Shown here: positions 14,711 to 19,949 of the stretch, in pieces
Layout: each line of letters starts with the position of its first letter
How positions within the stretch are numbered: the first letter of the stretch is position 1
From: Candidatus Altiarchaeota archaeon
Lineage (GTDB): Archaea > Altiarchaeota > Altiarchaeia > IMC4 > SCGC-AAA252-I15
Direction of reading: 5' to 3'
Length of the DNA: 24,115 bases
NCBI GenBank assembly: GCA_043800705.1
Contig: JAZDMS010000039.1
Span: forward strand, 1-24,115
Program-made: the position numbers and the translations under genes
The notes under the pieces: model-generated
Database searches by the model: none
The model's input: only the letters and a program-made list of their open reading frames with translations
Told to the model about the DNA's origin: nothing

Positions 14711-15394
14711 TCAGACTATCTTTCCGTCCTGTATCTTTATAGTCTTGTTCGTCTGTTTCGCGATGTTTGGGTCGTGGGTGACTATGACGAGAGTCCTCTT
14801 TTCCTCCTTGTTCAGCTTCTTGAGGAGTTCGAGTATCATCTTCCCCGTGGCGGAGTCTAGGTTGCCTGTGGGCTCGTCTGCGAGGATGATCTTCGGGTCG
14901 TTCGCCAGGGAGCGGGCTACCGCCACCCTCTGCTGCTGTCCGCCGGACATCTCGGACGGCTTGTTGCCGGCCTTGTCTTCGAGGGCTACGAGACGTAGGA
15001 GCTCTTTGACGCGTTTTTCCCTTTTTTCCTTCGGTGTCCCTTCGAAGCGCATCGGCAGCTCTATGTTCTCGAACGCCGTCATGTTCGGTATAAGGTTGAA
15101 CTGCTGGAACACGAAACCCAGCTTCTCCCGCCTCAGCCTGGCCTTCTCGTTGCCGCTGAGGGGCGTTATCGGCACGCCTTCGATGTAGACTTCACCCTGT
15201 GTGGGCGTGTCCAGGCAGCTTATCAGGTTCAGAAGGGTCGATTTGCCGCTGCCTGAGGGGCCGATTATGCTGACGAATGCGCCCTCCTGGATGGTCAGGT
15301 TCAGGCCGCAGAGGGCGATGAACTCGTTCGATTCTCCCGGATTGTAGGTCTTGCACAGGTCCTCGCACCGTATCTCTCCGTCTCCGTTACTCAT
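14711..15394 (-). CDS. ABC transporter ATP-binding protein (LolD/MacB-type)
   Basis: GPSGSGKST, GFVFQQFNL, MSGGQQQRVAVAR, ILADEPTGNLD, IVTHD. Confidence 0.97.
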   Translation of the reverse strand: MSNGDGEIRCEDLCKTYNPGESNEFIALCGLNLTIQEGAFVSIIGPSGSGKSTLLNLISCLDTPTQGEVYIEGVPITPLSGNEKARLRREKLGFVFQQFNLIPNMTAFENIELPMRFEGTPKEKREKRVKELLRLVALEDKAGNKPSEMSGGQQQRVAVARSLANDPKIILADEPTGNLDSATGKMILELLKKLNKEEKRTLVIVTHDPNIAKQTNKTIKIQDGKIV

Positions 15395-16592
15395 AGCGCA
15401 ACACCCTTATCGGATCCAGCTGTGAGGCGCTCCATGCGGGGTAGAGGCCGGCGCCCATCCCCAGAATCAACGAGAATCCCAGCCCTAGGCTTATGAGCTG
15501 TGGTGTCATGATGGGGGTGAATGTGGTGTACTGTGTAACCAGGCTCATTGACAGGTAGCCTAGAGTCAGCCCGGCAAATCCGCCGATTAGGCTCAGTATC
15601 GCGCTTTCCTGCAGCACCTGGAGAAGTATCGTCGATGTGGTGGCGCCGATCGCCTTCATGACGCCGATTTCCCTGCGGCGCTCCATCACGGACATTATCA
15701 TCGTGTTCATTATGCCGAGGCCGCCGACAAACACGGATATCGCGCCTATGCCGTATATCGCCATCTGGACCGTCTGGAATGTGGATTCCAGTTGGCGGAC
15801 CATTGTAAGCATCGACTGCGCCCTTACGTCAGATTCCTGGTCGTTTATCCTCTGGGTGATGTTCTCGACGTCGCTTATGTCGTTTAGCTGGACCTTTAGG
15901 GAGGCTATCCTGTCGTCTTGGGTTAACTCCTGCATCGTTTTCAGAGGCACATATGCCGCGGTGTCGATGGTGCTGGTGCCGGTCTGCTCTAGTACGCCCA
16001 CAATCTGGAAGTAGTAGCTGATGGATGTTTGATTGTCGGTGTAGATGTACTCTATCTCGTCTCCGACGTTCAGATTATTGGTGGTCGAAGTGTCTGAGCC
16101 AAGAAGGACGACGTCAGCGCCGTCGTCTGAGGGGTCGAGCCTGCGCCCTTCAGCAGTGTTTATTTCTTCGCCTATGAGGTAGTCCTGGTCTTCCGGGTTG
16201 ATGGCGGTGAATGTTATAGTGCTGGTTCCTCCTGCGCCATGGCCGAATAAGCCACCCATTGGGCCGCCTCCAAAGCCTCCCCCCCTGCCTCTTGAGACGC
16301 GATAGTTGCCGACTGGCACGACGCTTTTAACCTCGCCCCAGCTTTGGATGTCGTCTATGACGTCCTGCGATATGCCCAATGCCATGCCGGTGCCTGTGCC
16401 GCCTTCATCCGATGAGTCCCTGACGTCTATTACGGCCGCGACGGTGCCGAAGCGGGCCTGCATCTGCTGGTTCAGCCCTTCCCCTATGGAGCCGAGCGCC
16501 AGGATGAGGCCTATGCCCATGGCTATGCCGAGAATGGTGAGGGCGCTCCGTATCTTTTGCCTGAAGATGTTCTTTACGGCGATGTCCAGCAT
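15387..16592 (-). CDS. ABC transporter permease (MacB/FtsX-type)
   Basis: RSALTILGIAMG, large extracellular loop, VGGLGIMNTMIMSVMERRREIGVMKAIGA, GLYPAWSASQLDPIRVLRYE. Confidence 0.95.
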   Translation of the reverse strand: MLDIAVKNIFRQKIRSALTILGIAMGIGLILALGSIGEGLNQQMQARFGTVAAVIDVRDSSDEGGTGTGMALGISQDVIDDIQSWGEVKSVVPVGNYRVSRGRGGGFGGGPMGGLFGHGAGGTSTITFTAINPEDQDYLIGEEINTAEGRRLDPSDDGADVVLLGSDTSTTNNLNVGDEIEYIYTDNQTSISYYFQIVGVLEQTGTSTIDTAAYVPLKTMQELTQDDRIASLKVQLNDISDVENITQRINDQESDVRAQSMLTMVRQLESTFQTVQMAIYGIGAISVFVGGLGIMNTMIMSVMERRREIGVMKAIGATTSTILLQVLQESAILSLIGGFAGLTLGYLSMSLVTQYTTFTPIMTPQLISLGLGFSLILGMGAGLYPAWSASQLDPIRVLRYE

Positions 16593-16610
16593 TTTATTCC
16601 CCGCTTCGCC

Positions 16611-18254
16611 TCACTTCTTCTTGCCTTTGTATTTCCTGTAGGCCAGGTATAATATGGCCAGGGCCGCGGCCGCGTAGGCGTAGTTTGTGTAGCTTGTCCC
16701 GTTTGTGGAGGTGGTTCTGCTGCTTGTTCCCCCGCTGCTGGTGCCGAGGGTTATCCTCTCAGTCTGGGTGACCCGTTGGTTGTTTAGGCCGTTGTATTCC
16801 AGCTCCAATGTCGCGGGCCCTGTGGCTGATGTCGCGAAGGTGAAGGTGGTCTGTTTGGTGGACATTATGTTCGCCTTGTAGGATATTAGTCGGGTCGAAT
16901 CGGCGTCCATGCCCTGGCCAGAGTTGTTGAATTGACGCTGGCCGCCTCCGGCTTGGCCCCGGGTGGCGTTGCCGCCGAAGCCCCCGGTACCGGTGCGGTT
17001 CTGGGCGTTCGGGATTATGAGCGTGGCTTTCACGCCGTCCGCGGTCCTCGTCCCTATGTTGGCCACGTCTATCCTGACGCTGCCGCCGCTGGTTTGGACT
17101 TGCATGACTTCCAATGTGATCTTGCCTGCTACGTCCAGCCCGATGTCTTTTCTTACGCTGTAGGACGTTCCGCCGACCTTATAGTCTATGTTTAGGGGTA
17201 TGGAATAGGCTTGCGTGGCTGCATCCCATCCGACGGATACCTTGAAGGTGACTTCGACTTCGCCATTTGCAGGGACCGTTTGTATGTACCGCTCAGCAGA
17301 GTCCACAGGCGCGAAAGGCGCCGTCAGATTCAGCGAGAGGGTGACTCCGCCGGCTTTAGCCTCCCCGACGTTCTTGAGGACTACGGCCAAATCCGTCTGT
17401 TCGCCAGGCCCCGTCGGGGTGTAGCTCACGTTCGCTATCTTGAAGTCCACGCCCTGGTCTTGGACGTTTAAGCCGATTGTCACGTTGTCAGAGACCTTGG
17501 TGCCGACATCGTCAGTGTATGAGAGACCCAATGCCGCCATGCATGCCCCGGAGGTTGAAGGCTTGATGGAATATGCCAGATTAAAATTTTGGTTTTCGCC
17601 GACATCCCCCACATAATTCCTGGATGACCCGATGACGGTGACACAGTTGGACGACAGGGTAGCCTCCAAATCCTTCACGGAATCCTTTGCCAGGACCGTA
17701 AGGCTCAAGTCGTCCAGGTTATCCATATAGTAGGTCGTTTTTCCGGGCGTTACCTGGAATAGGGGGTTCCCCATGATGGTAAACGGTATCTCCCAGGTTG
17801 TGAGTTGGTTGTCGTTAGATGCCCCGTCGGACCTATATCCGTTATAGTTTATCTTAATCTGCAAGGCAGTCAACCCCGTCCTTGCCGTCGGATTGATTGA
17901 GACTATCACAGGTATCGTTTTAGTTTCGCTTGGGTCTATCCTGCCGATGTAGAACTTCTTGTCTGAGCGGACTATGCCTGTGCTTAGGAGCCACACTTGG
18001 ACGTCTTCTGCCTTCTGCCCCCCCGAATTTTTTATCGCAAGGTTGAATATCATGCTGTCTCCGGGCCTTGCGCTGGCGCTGGTCGGGGTTGACGTGAAAT
18101 CCACCACCATATTAGTGGCTGCCACATCCGATGTGCCACTTGATGAAGAGCTTAAAGCCGCAGCCTGCGCCGCTGGAGCCAGCATGCACAGAGCCAAAAA
18201 GACGGTAAAAACTGCCAATTTTTCAGATGTCCCAGATTGTTTCCATTCAAACAT
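16611..18254 (-). CDS. COG1361-like S-layer/Ig-domain membrane-anchored protein associated with the ABC transporter
   Basis: Signal peptide, repeated CARDB-like motifs (IKNSGGQKAEDV, LKNVGEAKAGGV, VANIGTRTADGV), C-terminal TM plus basic tail. Typical position upstream of an archaeal MacB-type permease. Confidence 0.85.
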   Translation of the reverse strand: MFEWKQSGTSEKLAVFTVFLALCMLAPAAQAAALSSSSSGTSDVAATNMVVDFTSTPTSASARPGDSMIFNLAIKNSGGQKAEDVQVWLLSTGIVRSDKKFYIGRIDPSETKTIPVIVSINPTARTGLTALQIKINYNGYRSDGASNDNQLTTWEIPFTIMGNPLFQVTPGKTTYYMDNLDDLSLTVLAKDSVKDLEATLSSNCVTVIGSSRNYVGDVGENQNFNLAYSIKPSTSGACMAALGLSYTDDVGTKVSDNVTIGLNVQDQGVDFKIANVSYTPTGPGEQTDLAVVLKNVGEAKAGGVTLSLNLTAPFAPVDSAERYIQTVPANGEVEVTFKVSVGWDAATQAYSIPLNIDYKVGGTSYSVRKDIGLDVAGKITLEVMQVQTSGGSVRIDVANIGTRTADGVKATLIIPNAQNRTGTGGFGGNATRGQAGGGQRQFNNSGQGMDADSTRLISYKANIMSTKQTTFTFATSATGPATLELEYNGLNNQRVTQTERITLGTSSGGTSSRTTSTNGTSYTNYAYAAAALAILYLAYRKYKGKKK

Positions 18255-18408
18255 TTTCCATCAACTCCGATCGATTATCTTGATTTCCTAAATTATACGT
18301 TTTTTGGCGTAATAATAACATCGTGGTTATTTTATGCTGGGTTGCCTGCTGATTCGACCCGGCCAAGTAAAGTGCCAGCCCGGCTGTTTTCATGTAGGAT
18401 ATGATAGG

Positions 18409-18457
18409 TGAAACAAGGGATAACCTTTGATGAAACACCCGTAACATAAAGTGAAAC
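18409..18457 (-). promoter_or_regulatory. Operator cassette copy 1 (upstream of the COG1361-ABC operon)
   Basis: TGAAAC 18409, TGAAAC 18431, GTAACA 18441, TGAAAC 18452 (plus-strand spelling). Confidence 0.8.
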
Positions 18458-18468
18458 CGCATATGGTT

Positions 18469-18584
18469 GGGCTTCCACCCGCGAGGCGATGTTGTGTTTG
18501 CGGATGGAAGCCCTTTGGTGGTTGAGCGTACACCCTATTTGTGTTTGCGGATGGAAGCCCTTTGGTGGTTGAGCGTTCACCCTA
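18469..18584. repeat. 14-bp-stem hairpin (18469-18513) and overlapping 46-bp tandem duplication (18492-18537 / 18539-18584, one mismatch)
   Basis: gggcttccacccgc...gcggatggaagccc; ttgtgtttgcggatggaagccctttggtggttgagcgt(a/t)cacccta x2. Confidence 0.92.
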
Positions 18585-18586
18585 GC

Positions 18587-19072
18587 TTACCATCTTCCAA
18601 TCCCCTTGAATCCCCCATGCTGTGGGCCTTTGCCTGCGCATCCTTTGTGGGTTGTCCAGTTTCCTTCGGTTCTCATGTTCTGCATCGCGCCCCTGACATC
18701 GTCGTCTGATGCGTCGACGGCAAGCCCCAGGCGCGTCCTTAATTGTTTGCCCTGCTCTGCCTGCATGGACTGACCCTTCGCTTTTACAGCCAGCCGGTAT
18801 TCCCTTAAGGTTGAATCCTCTGTGAGTCCAAGGTCTTTCAGATGCCTTTGCCAAAGCGCTTCCTGCACCTCTTCCCGGGTGGCGTTGTCAGGAAGGCCCA
18901 TGTCCTCAAGGAACGATAAGTTCCCGAAGACGGCCTGTCTGCCGAATCCCCCCTTCATCCATGGTTTGCCCATGAGTCTCTGCCCGCCTTCGTATGCTGC
19001 CGCCGCTGCGACGAACACCCCAAACACCACCAGGGCGGCTGCCCCGGCGATGAATAATCTTTTCTTTTCCAT
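18587..19072 (-). CDS. Small secreted helical protein (161 aa) with three (L/M)GL-xxx-(A/S) repeats; Spy/CpxP/ZraP-like architecture
   Basis: RBS GAGGTGA, ATG 19072, signal peptide; MGLPDNATREEV / LGLTEDSTLREY / LGLAVDASDDDV; Gly/Met-rich termini. Confidence 0.75.
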   Translation of the reverse strand: MEKKRLFIAGAAALVVFGVFVAAAAAYEGGQRLMGKPWMKGGFGRQAVFGNLSFLEDMGLPDNATREEVQEALWQRHLKDLGLTEDSTLREYRLAVKAKGQSMQAEQGKQLRTRLGLAVDASDDDVRGAMQNMRTEGNWTTHKGCAGKGPQHGGFKGIGRW

Positions 19073-19103
19073 TTGTCGATTCACCTCTGAAGGAGTTAAA
19101 TGA

Positions 19104-19152
19104 TGAAACAGGAGTAAAGCTATTATGAAATCGCCGTGACAGAAAATGAAAC
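19104..19152 (-). promoter_or_regulatory. Operator cassette copy 2
   Basis: TGAAAC 19104, TGAAAT 19126, GTGACA 19136, TGAAAC 19147. Confidence 0.8.
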
Positions 19153-19162
19153 CAGGGCATAT

Positions 19163-19573
19163 TCATATTTTCAGCCTGATGAGGTTTGTGTTTCCGAGTG
19201 GCCTCTTGTCTACTACCCCCCTCTGCTCGAGTTTCATTATGAGACGCGATACTTTGACCTTTGACAGGCCGCTTTCGGCGACCAGGTGCATCTGGTCCAT
19301 CCGCTTCTCCTTGAGTAGGAGCTCTATCAGCTTCCTCTCGTCCGGGGGGAGGACTTTGAGCATGTTGTAGGCGTGCTGGTGGCTTATCCTCCACTGGAAG
19401 AGGAGGATTATCATGGCCCCCACCATCATCGCGACGGCGGCCACGCCGTAGGTCAGAAGAGGCATCTGCATCCCCGTGTCCTCTATGAAGTATCCGTTAA
19501 GGATTGAGAGCATCAGCCCTAGAAGGAAAACCAGGGTTATAGCGACTGCCAGCCGAGTCTCCGAAACTTCCAT
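19163..19573 (-). CDS. Membrane-anchored winged-helix transcription regulator (2 TM + wHTH; COG2512-like)
   Basis: Two N-terminal TM helices, then LPPDERKLIELL..MDQMHLVAESGLSKVKVSRLIMKLEQRGVVDKRPLGNTNLIRL. Confidence 0.88.
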   Translation of the reverse strand: MEVSETRLAVAITLVFLLGLMLSILNGYFIEDTGMQMPLLTYGVAAVAMMVGAMIILLFQWRISHQHAYNMLKVLPPDERKLIELLLKEKRMDQMHLVAESGLSKVKVSRLIMKLEQRGVVDKRPLGNTNLIRLKI

Positions 19574-19574
19574 C

Positions 19575-19862
19575 TTAGTCAGCCAGGTCTTCCCTCATCT
19601 GCAGGAACGTCTTCCGATCTATCTCACCCGACGCGTATCTGCGCTTGAGCAGGTTCAAAGGCGTCTCAAAAGCGGTGTGCGCCTTCTTTTGGGAGCCTTT
19701 AAGAAGCCACCAGAATATCAGCGCAACCAGGGTCACAGTCAGCAGATTCCAAATCAGCGGCATGGGTATGACTCCGAATAAGGGGTCATAGTATCCAGAA
19801 AAATGCCTTACAGTCTCATCGCGGCCTATGCGTTGCCCGATTTCCACTGCGCTTGTATCCAT
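19575..19862 (-). CDS. SHOCT-domain membrane protein (95 aa)
   Basis: RBS GAGGTG, ATG 19862, one TM, C-terminal PLNLLKRRYASGEIDRKTFLQMREDL. Confidence 0.88.
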   Translation of the reverse strand: MDTSAVEIGQRIGRDETVRHFSGYYDPLFGVIPMPLIWNLLTVTLVALIFWWLLKGSQKKAHTAFETPLNLLKRRYASGEIDRKTFLQMREDLAD

Positions 19863-19900
19863 ATTACACACCTCATTATGCTTCTATGCCAATAAAAGGA

Positions 19901-19949
19901 TGAAACAGGACATATCCTTGGGTGAAACAGGCGTAACAGAAAGTGAAAC
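19901..19949 (-). promoter_or_regulatory. Operator cassette copy 3 (upstream of the SHOCT-regulator operon)
   Basis: TGAAAC 19901, TGAAAC 19923, GTAACA 19933, TGAAAC 19944. Confidence 0.8.

Follow-up and report, generated by a model that had tools for sequence, protein, structure and literature searches.

The locus described here raises a question about a composite DNA element and a small membrane protein: does a 49-bp element that stands in front of three transcription units of an archaeal contig serve as the operator of the regulator encoded behind one of its copies and, if it does, are the promoters held shut by it or opened? The stretch analyzed, hereafter the window, is the whole of contig JAZDMS010000039.1 (24,115 nucleotides; our C33), one of the 43 contigs of a 2,003,634-bp assembly (GCA_043800705.1) that is 87.55% complete. 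The named homologues of the window's regulator all come from metagenome-assembled genomes of Candidatus Altiarchaeota, Altiarchaeales, or Altiarchaeia, with one labelled Methanobacteriota, and the source organism is therefore an Altiarchaeota archaeon. For comparison, we used a set of 61 related Altiarchaeota genomes, the window's own included, and fetched 39 wider loci from other genomes, which together with the window gave 61 sites at up to 3 mismatches; all genomes compared are kin. Judging from sequence, we consider it probable that the 49-bp element is the operator of the neighboring 136-amino-acid (aa) protein, a winged helix-turn-helix (wHTH) regulator predicted to be anchored in the membrane.

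A four-box element before three transcription units

The element, described in an earlier note on this DNA as a triplicated composite, reads TGAAAC-N16-TGAAAY-N4-GTRACA-N5-TGAAAC on the plus strand and occurs three times, each time without a mismatch and, as that note had stated, each time upstream of a minus-strand unit. In the minus-strand direction, it becomes GTTTCA-N5-TGnnAC-N4-GTTTCA-N16-GTTTCA and spans 49 bp. The three copies, with their scores in the matrix scan described below and their predicted transcription start sites (TSSs), are as follows.

19901..19949, minus strand: putative operator/promoter 1, before the SHOCT-wHTH operon; 64.8 bits; TATA-like ATAT at 19912-19915; predicted TSS near 19886; 38 nt from the last box to the SHOCT ATG at 19862

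19104..19152, minus strand: putative operator/promoter 2, before the gene for a 161-aa protein; 51.2 bits; TATA-like TTTA at 19115-19118; predicted TSS near 19089; 31 nt from the last box to the ATG at 19072

18409..18457, minus strand: putative operator/promoter 3, before the CARDB-MacB-ABC operon; 69.3 bits; TATA-like TTAT at 18420-18423; predicted TSS near 18394; 154 nt from the last box to the CARDB ATG at 18254

No fourth match with up to 2 mismatches was found in the window, and 100 dinucleotide shuffles of the window yielded no composite match, against three in the real sequence. The bare hexamer TGAAAC is unenriched in the window (13 found, 9.1 expected). Since the word is no more frequent than expected and the composite is absent from the shuffles, the signal resides in the arrangement of the boxes and not in the word itself. 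Neither the full pattern nor any of three sub-patterns is found at another place in the whole assembly. A scan of the genome with a weight matrix, which the earlier note had asked for, gave the same picture: when a position weight matrix built from the 58 non-window sites, all from other genomes, was scored at 4,003,140 positions, the window's sites took the first three ranks, with operator 3 at the top, and the fourth-best score in the genome was 19.1 bits. With three sites only in the genome by both pattern and matrix, the regulon is self-contained, as had been proposed.

Read in the direction of transcription, the 61 sites share the consensus tGTTTCAnTTTtTGnnACaGnTGTTTCAnnnaaanaTAtnnccTGTTTCA, in which the boxes are near-invariant and the spacers free. 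The boxes start at positions 1, 12, 22, and 44 of the element, with center spacings of 11, 10, and 22 bp, and the three that start at 1, 22, and 44 are direct GTTTCA repeats. All boxes are in helical phase, 21 to 22 bp apart, which places them on one face of the DNA. At its outer bases, box 2 (TGnnAC, start 12) agrees with an inverted GTTTCA, and in one genome (L030) it reads TGAAAC throughout; boxes 1 and 2 may thus form an imperfect palindrome.

The regulator and its relatives

The protein that we regard as the reader of these boxes is encoded in the operon behind operator 1.

19163..19573, minus strand: 136-aa transmembrane transcription regulator (P0001), with an N-terminal transmembrane hairpin and a C-terminal DUF7343 wHTH

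The earlier description of this protein as two transmembrane segments plus a wHTH agrees with what we found. Hydropathy, used in place of a dedicated transmembrane predictor, gives hydrophobic segments at residues 3-31 and 37-64 (Kyte-Doolittle means, 2.47 and 2.27), and the structure model (predicted local distance difference test [pLDDT], 82) has helices at 5-33 and 39-74, joined by a loop of about 5 residues and followed by the wHTH. The match to PF24034 (DUF7343) scores 47.2 bits against a cut-off of 27.6. The best Foldseek matches of the wHTH are regulators of the MarR/ArsR/MecI type (E values from 3.4e-4 to 2.8e-3) and not of the OmpR/PhoB type, and the protein stays below the family cut-offs of Pfam MarR_2 (22.0 versus 27) and NCBIfam ArsR NF033788 (22.5 versus 55). 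The soluble dimerization helices of MarR and ArsR are replaced here by the transmembrane hairpin. With a DNA-binding domain and at least one predicted transmembrane segment in the same polypeptide, the protein has the makeup of a transmembrane transcription regulator (TTR). Conservation is concentrated in the short outer loop, an N-terminal MEVSE motif, and the recognition helix; the recognition region is almost invariant (74% mean column identity, 29 sequences), which we link with the invariance of the hexamer. Since its gene lies behind one of the three sites, the regulator is probably autoregulated.

The genome holds at least five other DUF7343 matches. A 289-aa paralogue (L005, 772-1641; G000 contig C18) consists of two modules of transmembrane hairpin plus wHTH fused in tandem; it looks like a natural "covalent dimer" and hints that the regulator unit acts as a dimer. 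A 158-aa protein with two transmembrane segments and a wHTH (L001, 1495-1971; G000 contig C5) has a Cys-rich outer loop (CTCGDTC), and the genome therefore contains several small transmembrane regulators of this kind. In the window itself, an open reading frame (ORF) at 2-382 on the plus strand runs off the start of the contig and encodes tandem repeats of the ENRELKTENGGLRT type, followed by a DUF7343 wHTH (33.9 bits); by its position, this ORF is unrelated to the regulon.

Full-length orthologues of the 136-aa regulator (54 to 77% identity) are present in 29 of the 61 genomes, and the composite, at up to 2 mismatches, in 30, with one to three copies in each; a reversed control pattern had no match in any of the 61. 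Both are found in 28 genomes and neither in 30, an outcome that upholds the joint occurrence of motif and regulator on which the earlier note had made its proposal depend. The three exceptions are explained by assembly limits: in the sole genome with an orthologue only (G019), the contig starts inside the promoter; in one of the genomes with the motif only (G045), the contig (L064) breaks off inside the SHOCT gene, shortly before the place where the regulator would be expected; and the other (G048) is 60% complete.

The genes that follow the element are conserved as well. The first same-strand gene belongs to the 161-aa family at 22 of the 61 sites, to the CARDB class at 18, to the SHOCT class at 17, and to neither of these at 4, such that 57 of 61 sites precede the same three gene classes despite differing gene order. 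CARDB is followed by MacB and the ABC ATPase where the contig continues, and SHOCT by the wHTH gene; in some genomes, the motif is followed by a 161-aa gene and then by SHOCT and wHTH. The four remaining first genes encode a 161-aa-like paralogue, a Cys-rich secreted protein, a DUF4405 membrane protein, and a paralogue followed by DUF4405. We also observed DUF4405 membrane proteins downstream of the motif in L058 and L059 and directly before SHOCT-wHTH in L072; those of L059 and L072 have Cys-rich C-terminal tails, while the Cys-rich stretch of L058 lies in a separate next ORF. These placements suggest extra regulon members in some genomes. Cys-rich secreted repeat proteins were further seen upstream of SHOCT-wHTH in L045 and L071.

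Four genomes (G001, G003, G006, and G009) have no 136-aa orthologue and yet contain the CARDB operon. Beside it, in divergent orientation, each encodes a protein of 187 to 224 aa composed of a transmembrane segment, a loop of 60 to 90 residues, a second transmembrane segment, and a wHTH, here called type B as distinct from the 136-aa type A.

Type B loci: L076-L079, L087, L089, and L091 (G003, G001, G009, G006, G010, G029, and G036); also L044 and L045

The type B intergenic region reads GTTTCA-nTTTGTTACnT-GTTTCA-GTTT-GTTTCA-N17-GTTTCA, with a consensus TTTTATA in the gap, and its boxes start at 0/17/27/50, compared with 0/11/21/43 in type A. Type B regulators occur in 11 of the 61 genomes; among nine loci examined, four have the full four-box form and the rest reduced forms. 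In L076 and L077, the type B start codon abuts box 1. Both types are carried by G024, G042, and G044, which belong to one genus: type B adjoins the CARDB operon in G024 and G042, and the type A motif of all three genomes stands before 161-aa-like and SHOCT units only. At a distant, class-level orthologue locus (L056), four GTTTCA boxes start at 0/20/40/62. These comparisons indicate that the hexamer is common to both types and that the spacing is type specific, and the regulator at the ABC operon appears to have been exchanged between lineages.

Promoter geometry and the sign of regulation

Where the boxes lie relative to the promoter bears on what their occupation would do. The 16-nt gap before box 4 contains a purine-rich stretch and then WTAT at a fixed position, and this short WTAT of type A sites is kept even in AT-rich relatives. 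At seven sites in other genomes, an ATG without a Shine-Dalgarno sequence lies at +15 or +16 after box 4, and at sites led by a Shine-Dalgarno sequence the GAGGTG never starts earlier than +15. Both observations place the probable TSS some 15 nt beyond box 4, and the leaderless starts fit the range of 10 to 15 nt that the earlier note had expected. On that start, the boxes would lie at about -63/-58, -52/-47, -42/-37, and -20/-15, with WTAT centered at -27, and box 3 would adjoin the B recognition element (BRE). A center at -27 matches the canonical position of an archaeal TATA box. We considered the TTTTAT or TTTAA that follows directly on box 4 in some SHOCT promoters as the real TATA and rejected it, because the TSS would then fall downstream of the conserved GAGGTG. 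The CARDB gene would have a 5' leader of about 140 nt; in this region (window 18255-18408), TATAATTTA stands about 40 nt before the ATG and might act as an additional promoter that escapes this regulation. The distance from motif to CARDB in other genomes ranges from 28 to 755 nt.

The reading that we prefer, to which we give a probability of about 0.5, is that a membrane-anchored one-component regulator runs a regulon of three promoters and that its operator holds these promoters shut or poised. The 136-aa protein would be held in the membrane by its N-terminal two-helix hairpin, with the minimal MarR/ArsR-like wHTH just beneath the membrane, and copies of it would bind the four in-phase boxes that bracket the BRE/TATA of its own SHOCT-wHTH operon, of the gene for the secreted helical 161-aa protein, and of the CARDB-MacB-ABC operon. 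In the resting state, this array would keep the promoters shut or poised, with the occupied box at -20/-15 blocking the loading of RNA polymerase, and the same array would exert negative autoregulation. An envelope signal, sensed through the transmembrane hairpin with its conserved short outer loop, and with the SHOCT protein, the 161-aa protein, or both as probable partners, would loosen the array and turn all three units on together. The signal may come from the cell envelope, possibly as metal or redox stress, since the tails of the 161-aa family are rich in Gly, Met, Cys, and His and since Cys-rich secreted proteins and DUF4405 proteins are found among the extra targets. Such a source would also agree with the response of Haloferax alexandrinus to silver, which is reported to include induction of a SHOCT membrane protein and of a COG1361 surface protein, and with a proposal that SHOCT-like domains assemble membrane-proximal stress-signaling complexes. 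A co-sensor role, as the earlier note had suggested for the SHOCT protein or the ABC complex, would be conjectural.

Provided that the element is the regulator's operator, we think repression or poising the likelier sign, with activation a serious contender. Repression is favored because box 4 lies between TATA and TSS, because the MarR/ArsR/MecI-type fold family is typically repressive, and because type B promoters keep a consensus TTTTATA within the same box grammar, which is harder to fit with the recruitment of TBP to a weak promoter. Regulators of the MarR, ArsR, and MecI families mostly repress their own genes together with neighboring ones for efflux or resistance, and archaeal sites between TATA and TSS more often serve repression, as with SurR, TrmBL1/Tgr, MDR1, and Phr. 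Several points weigh against the reading. Part of the co-occurrence is trivial, as one copy of the motif lies within the regulator's own operon; its independent part consists of unlinked CARDB or 161-aa units, and CARDB operons with the motif are found on contigs other than the regulator's in L060, L062, L063, and L065. Five SHOCT-wHTH pairs (L044, L045, L067, L071, and L072) have no composite, at up to 7 mismatches, in the 721 to 1,300 nt upstream; four of the five are preceded by further same-strand genes, and L067 looks truly motif-free. Type A promoters have only the short WTAT, as against boxes of the TTTTAT type that inspection by eye showed before some of the genome's 20 listed tRNA genes, a comparison that is anecdotal and made without TSS alignment. 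An array of boxes on one DNA face would leave the other face free for TBP and TFB. Finally, the transmembrane regulators characterized so far are activators, including ToxR, CadC, and BcrR, which by analogy would speak for the opposite sign. The same is said of ArnR in the available part of its description (PMC6396743) and of characterized transmembrane regulators in the available part of a survey (Demey et al. 2023, PMC10269533).

We therefore weighed the preferred reading against other explanations. The same operator and regulator might instead act as an activator, which we rate as possible, if clearly less probable: the protein, bound on the membrane-facing side of the DNA, would stabilize the promoter as bent by TBP/TFB and recruit polymerase, the SHOCT-wHTH operon would be positively autoregulated, and the 161-aa protein would be the chief product of induction and might also inhibit the system by feedback. 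Three of the boxes would lie upstream of BRE/TATA, where archaeal activators bind (in the available description, the ArnR boxes lie at -43 to -84; PMC6396743), and the helical phasing of the boxes, the retention of a bare WTAT in AT-rich relatives, and the precedent of the characterized transmembrane regulators would all suit activation. Against activation stand a fourth box at -20/-15 as conserved as the others, the consensus TTTTATA in type B promoters of the same grammar, and the MarR/ArsR-like fold. It is also conceivable, though in our view improbable, that the boxes are bound by another factor, either a DUF7343 paralogue or a specialized TFB or TBP, and that the transmembrane wHTH protein is merely co-regulated. 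The genome has candidates in its other DUF7343 matches, and use of the same hexamer by type B regulators means that it is not unique to one protein; against this, the composite tracks the orthologue with no exceptions beyond those due to assembly limits, and in the four genomes that kept the CARDB operon without an orthologue, the architecture changes with the type of the neighboring regulator. Three copies within 1.5 kb might even suggest a non-regulatory repeat, such as a mobile-element remnant or an RNA-level leader structure. We consider this very improbable, as the spacers diverge while the boxes are fixed in more than 25 genomes at equivalent promoter positions, the element lies upstream of the predicted TSS, and there are no copies elsewhere in the genome.

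A joint picture of both types of regulator can also be drawn, which we regard as doubtful. Altiarchaeota would have one family of minimal membrane-anchored wHTH proteins, with type A having a loop of about 5 residues and a SHOCT partner and type B a loop of 60 to 90 residues and a divergent gene; both would bind GTTTCA in type-specific spacing, and lineages would have swapped the types at the CARDB-MacB-ABC operon. The four in-phase boxes would tether the promoter to the inner membrane face, with TBP and TFB on the opposite face of the DNA, and the state of the envelope would act on assembly of the pre-initiation complex without a soluble messenger, with the 161-aa and SHOCT proteins as extracytoplasmic and membrane parts of the sensor.

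Other regulon genes and known systems

The remaining features of the regulon, in the order of transcription, are the following.

19575..19862, minus strand: membrane protein of 95 aa, single-pass, with SHOCT as its C-terminal domain, encoded first in the regulator operon; hydrophobic segment 28-55

18587..19072, minus strand: helical protein of 161 aa with a signal anchor, repeats of the motif LGL-x-E-D/N-A/S-T, and a tail rich in Gly and Cys; no known family

18492..18584, no strand: tandem duplication of a 47-bp unit (97% match; 2.0 copies), placed between the stop codon of the 161-aa gene and operator 3

16611..18254, minus strand: 547-aa surface protein with a signal peptide, CARDB (PF07705, 2e-11) and NEW3 (PF10633, 8.8e-8) Ig-like domains, and a hydrophobic, Lys-rich C-terminus

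15387..16592, minus strand: MacB-type (FtsX-family) ABC permease with an extracytoplasmic core domain; MacB_PCD (PF12704, 1.7e-24) and FtsX (PF02687, 7.4e-22)

14711..15394, minus strand: ABC ATPase of the MacB/LolD/FtsE type; ABC_tran (PF00005, 1.4e-37)

Upstream of these, an amidase gene ends 7 nt before operator 1. The SHOCT assignment made in the earlier note holds at the family level: the window protein itself matches PF09851 just under the cut-off (E = 2.6e-5; 24.3 bits versus 27), and 25 of 26 relatives match it, the best with an E value of 9e-9. A complex prediction for the regulator (29 rows) and the SHOCT protein (26 rows), run without controls, scored 0.00 and 0.01 against a mark of 0.32 and is evidence neither way.

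The 161-aa protein had been called Spy-like, a label that our searches did not sustain. PF13801 appeared in 2 of 17 relatives, at E values of 0.54 or higher, and PF07813 was not among the 25 Pfam families listed for the relatives. A profile search of the PDB had a best E value of 0.49 and returned neither Spy nor CpxP, and Foldseek against the PDB gave no match at an E value of 0.001 or lower (45 at up to 10, with J-domains among the weak rows). For the protein itself, Pfam returned only DUF4145, below its cut-off (E = 0.0048), and NCBIfam nothing meaningful; in the ESM Atlas, the best feature score was 0.85, for unnamed archaeal clusters, and DUF2680 at 0.78 is a lead only. Its AlphaFold2 model (pLDDT, 75) has helices at 52-135. 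Among 17 members of the family, Pfam matched Mu-like_Pro in 13 (best E = 0.0016) and DnaJ in 6 (best E = 7.3e-5), which we read as a resemblance among helical repeats and not as membership. What the 161-aa protein shares with Spy, CpxP, and ZraP is that it is small, secreted, and all-helical; among the outputs, it appears to lie nearest to the motif of the regulator. It differs in having no sequence or fold similarity to them, weak J-domain-like matches only, and no LTXXQ motif by eye. By analogy of regulatory logic, it could nevertheless be a feedback component. In one genus (g15; L044, L045, and L071), a module of a 161-aa-like protein and a small SHOCT protein occurs up to three times per locus; some copies have no signal anchor, and several have leaderless starts exactly 15 to 16 nt after box 4.

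The third unit is headed by the 547-aa CARDB/NEW3 gene, which the earlier note did not mention. That note's MacB-type ABC genes are confirmed by the MacB_PCD, FtsX, and ABC_tran matches, and the permease with its cognate ATPase has the features of a MacB-type (type VII) ABC transporter. No HlyD/MacA adaptor of a tripartite MacAB-TolC-like system was found in the operon, whose third gene is the one for the CARDB/NEW3 surface protein. The CARDB-MacB-ABC triad recurs in 23 of the fetched loci. The 47-bp duplication in front of this unit occurs nowhere else in the genome; its second copy, read on the minus strand, and the sequence that follows form a 14-bp GC-rich hairpin (minimum free energy, -52.6 kcal/mol; z, -4.28), and it may be a terminator or insulator between units. 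A similar GGAAGCC...CAAC stretch was seen before the CARDB-operon motif in L039 and L074.

Among bacterial systems, BcrR of Enterococcus faecalis is a membrane-bound regulator of an adjacent ABC resistance transporter and resembles the present regulator in lying beside an ABC operon, while ToxR/ToxS, TcpP/TcpH, and VtrA/VtrC have a small membrane partner in the regulator's operon, as SHOCT is here. Compared by description only, these differ in being bacterial, in having XRE or OmpR-type folds, and in being activators throughout. The earlier comparison with OmpR/PhoB and with ToxR/CadC therefore stands in the functional sense but not in the structural one. ToxR and CadC are defined by an N-terminal OmpR/PhoB-type wHTH, a single transmembrane segment, and a C-terminal periplasmic sensor domain, whereas here a MarR/ArsR-like wHTH is C-terminal, two transmembrane segments enclose a loop of about 5 residues in place of a periplasmic domain, and the Pfam and NCBIfam matches include no OmpR-type family. 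The best fold matches to the wHTH are MarR/ArsR-type repressors (PcaV, 4fht; NadR, 5aip; HpaR, 7el3; AntR, 6uvu; CadC of pI258, 1u2w; MecI, 1sd6), for which a context of efflux or resistance operons is typical, as it is here; unlike their single palindrome, the sites of this locus are mainly direct repeats.

Among archaea, such membrane-bound one-component regulators are predicted in most, with TTRs in 367 of the 404 species surveyed, and the available part of that survey names ArnR/ArnR1 as the sole pair studied (Demey et al. 2023, PMC10269533). As here, these proteins combine a DNA-binding domain and transmembrane segments in one polypeptide without a kinase; the same part of the survey gives no archaeal operators or regulons, and the present locus adds an operator, a regulon, and a partner gene. 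ArnR and ArnR1 of Sulfolobus acidocaldarius are likewise membrane-bound one-component regulators with repeated promoter boxes, both of which ArnR needs for binding, according to the available portion of PMC6396743. By that portion, ArnR carries its HTH at the N-terminus and two transmembrane segments at the C-terminus, along with HAMP and sensor domains, and its boxes are inverted repeats (TCGAC-N5-GTCGA) that lie wholly upstream of BRE/TATA and control archaellum and pili; here, an N-terminal hairpin precedes a minimal C-terminal wHTH, and the boxes bracket the TATA of the SHOCT-wHTH, 161-aa, and CARDB-MacB-ABC units. Family searches and the structure model place the 136-residue protein outside the ArnR family, with a reversed domain order and neither a HAMP nor a sensor domain. 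EarA of Methanococcus maripaludis, as cited in the available part of PMC6396743, also has a 6-bp box four times in its target promoter but is a soluble activator with TACATA boxes and the fla operon as its target. A literature search, with subscription journals and supplements outside its range, found nothing on DUF7343, the present operator, Altiarchaeota promoters, or the archaeal CARDB-MacB triad. Membrane-bound one-component regulators are thus known as a class, to which this locus would add a well-supported cis-element and regulon, with binding, sign, and signal predicted.

The locus bears on a general question, namely how a membrane-tethered factor gains access to an archaeal, eukaryote-like promoter and controls it. 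For this question it offers a very small regulator, a sharply delimited putative operator of 49 bp whose phasing to TATA and to the probable start site is known, three promoters as its natural targets, and dozens of sequence variants that occur in nature, such that in vitro and structure-prediction work is feasible at once even though the organisms are uncultured. It also opens a first route to the regulation of SHOCT membrane proteins and of the CARDB-MacB-ABC triad, which is widespread in archaea, and provides a candidate membrane-to-gene switch in Altiarchaeota, a phylum where none has been studied.

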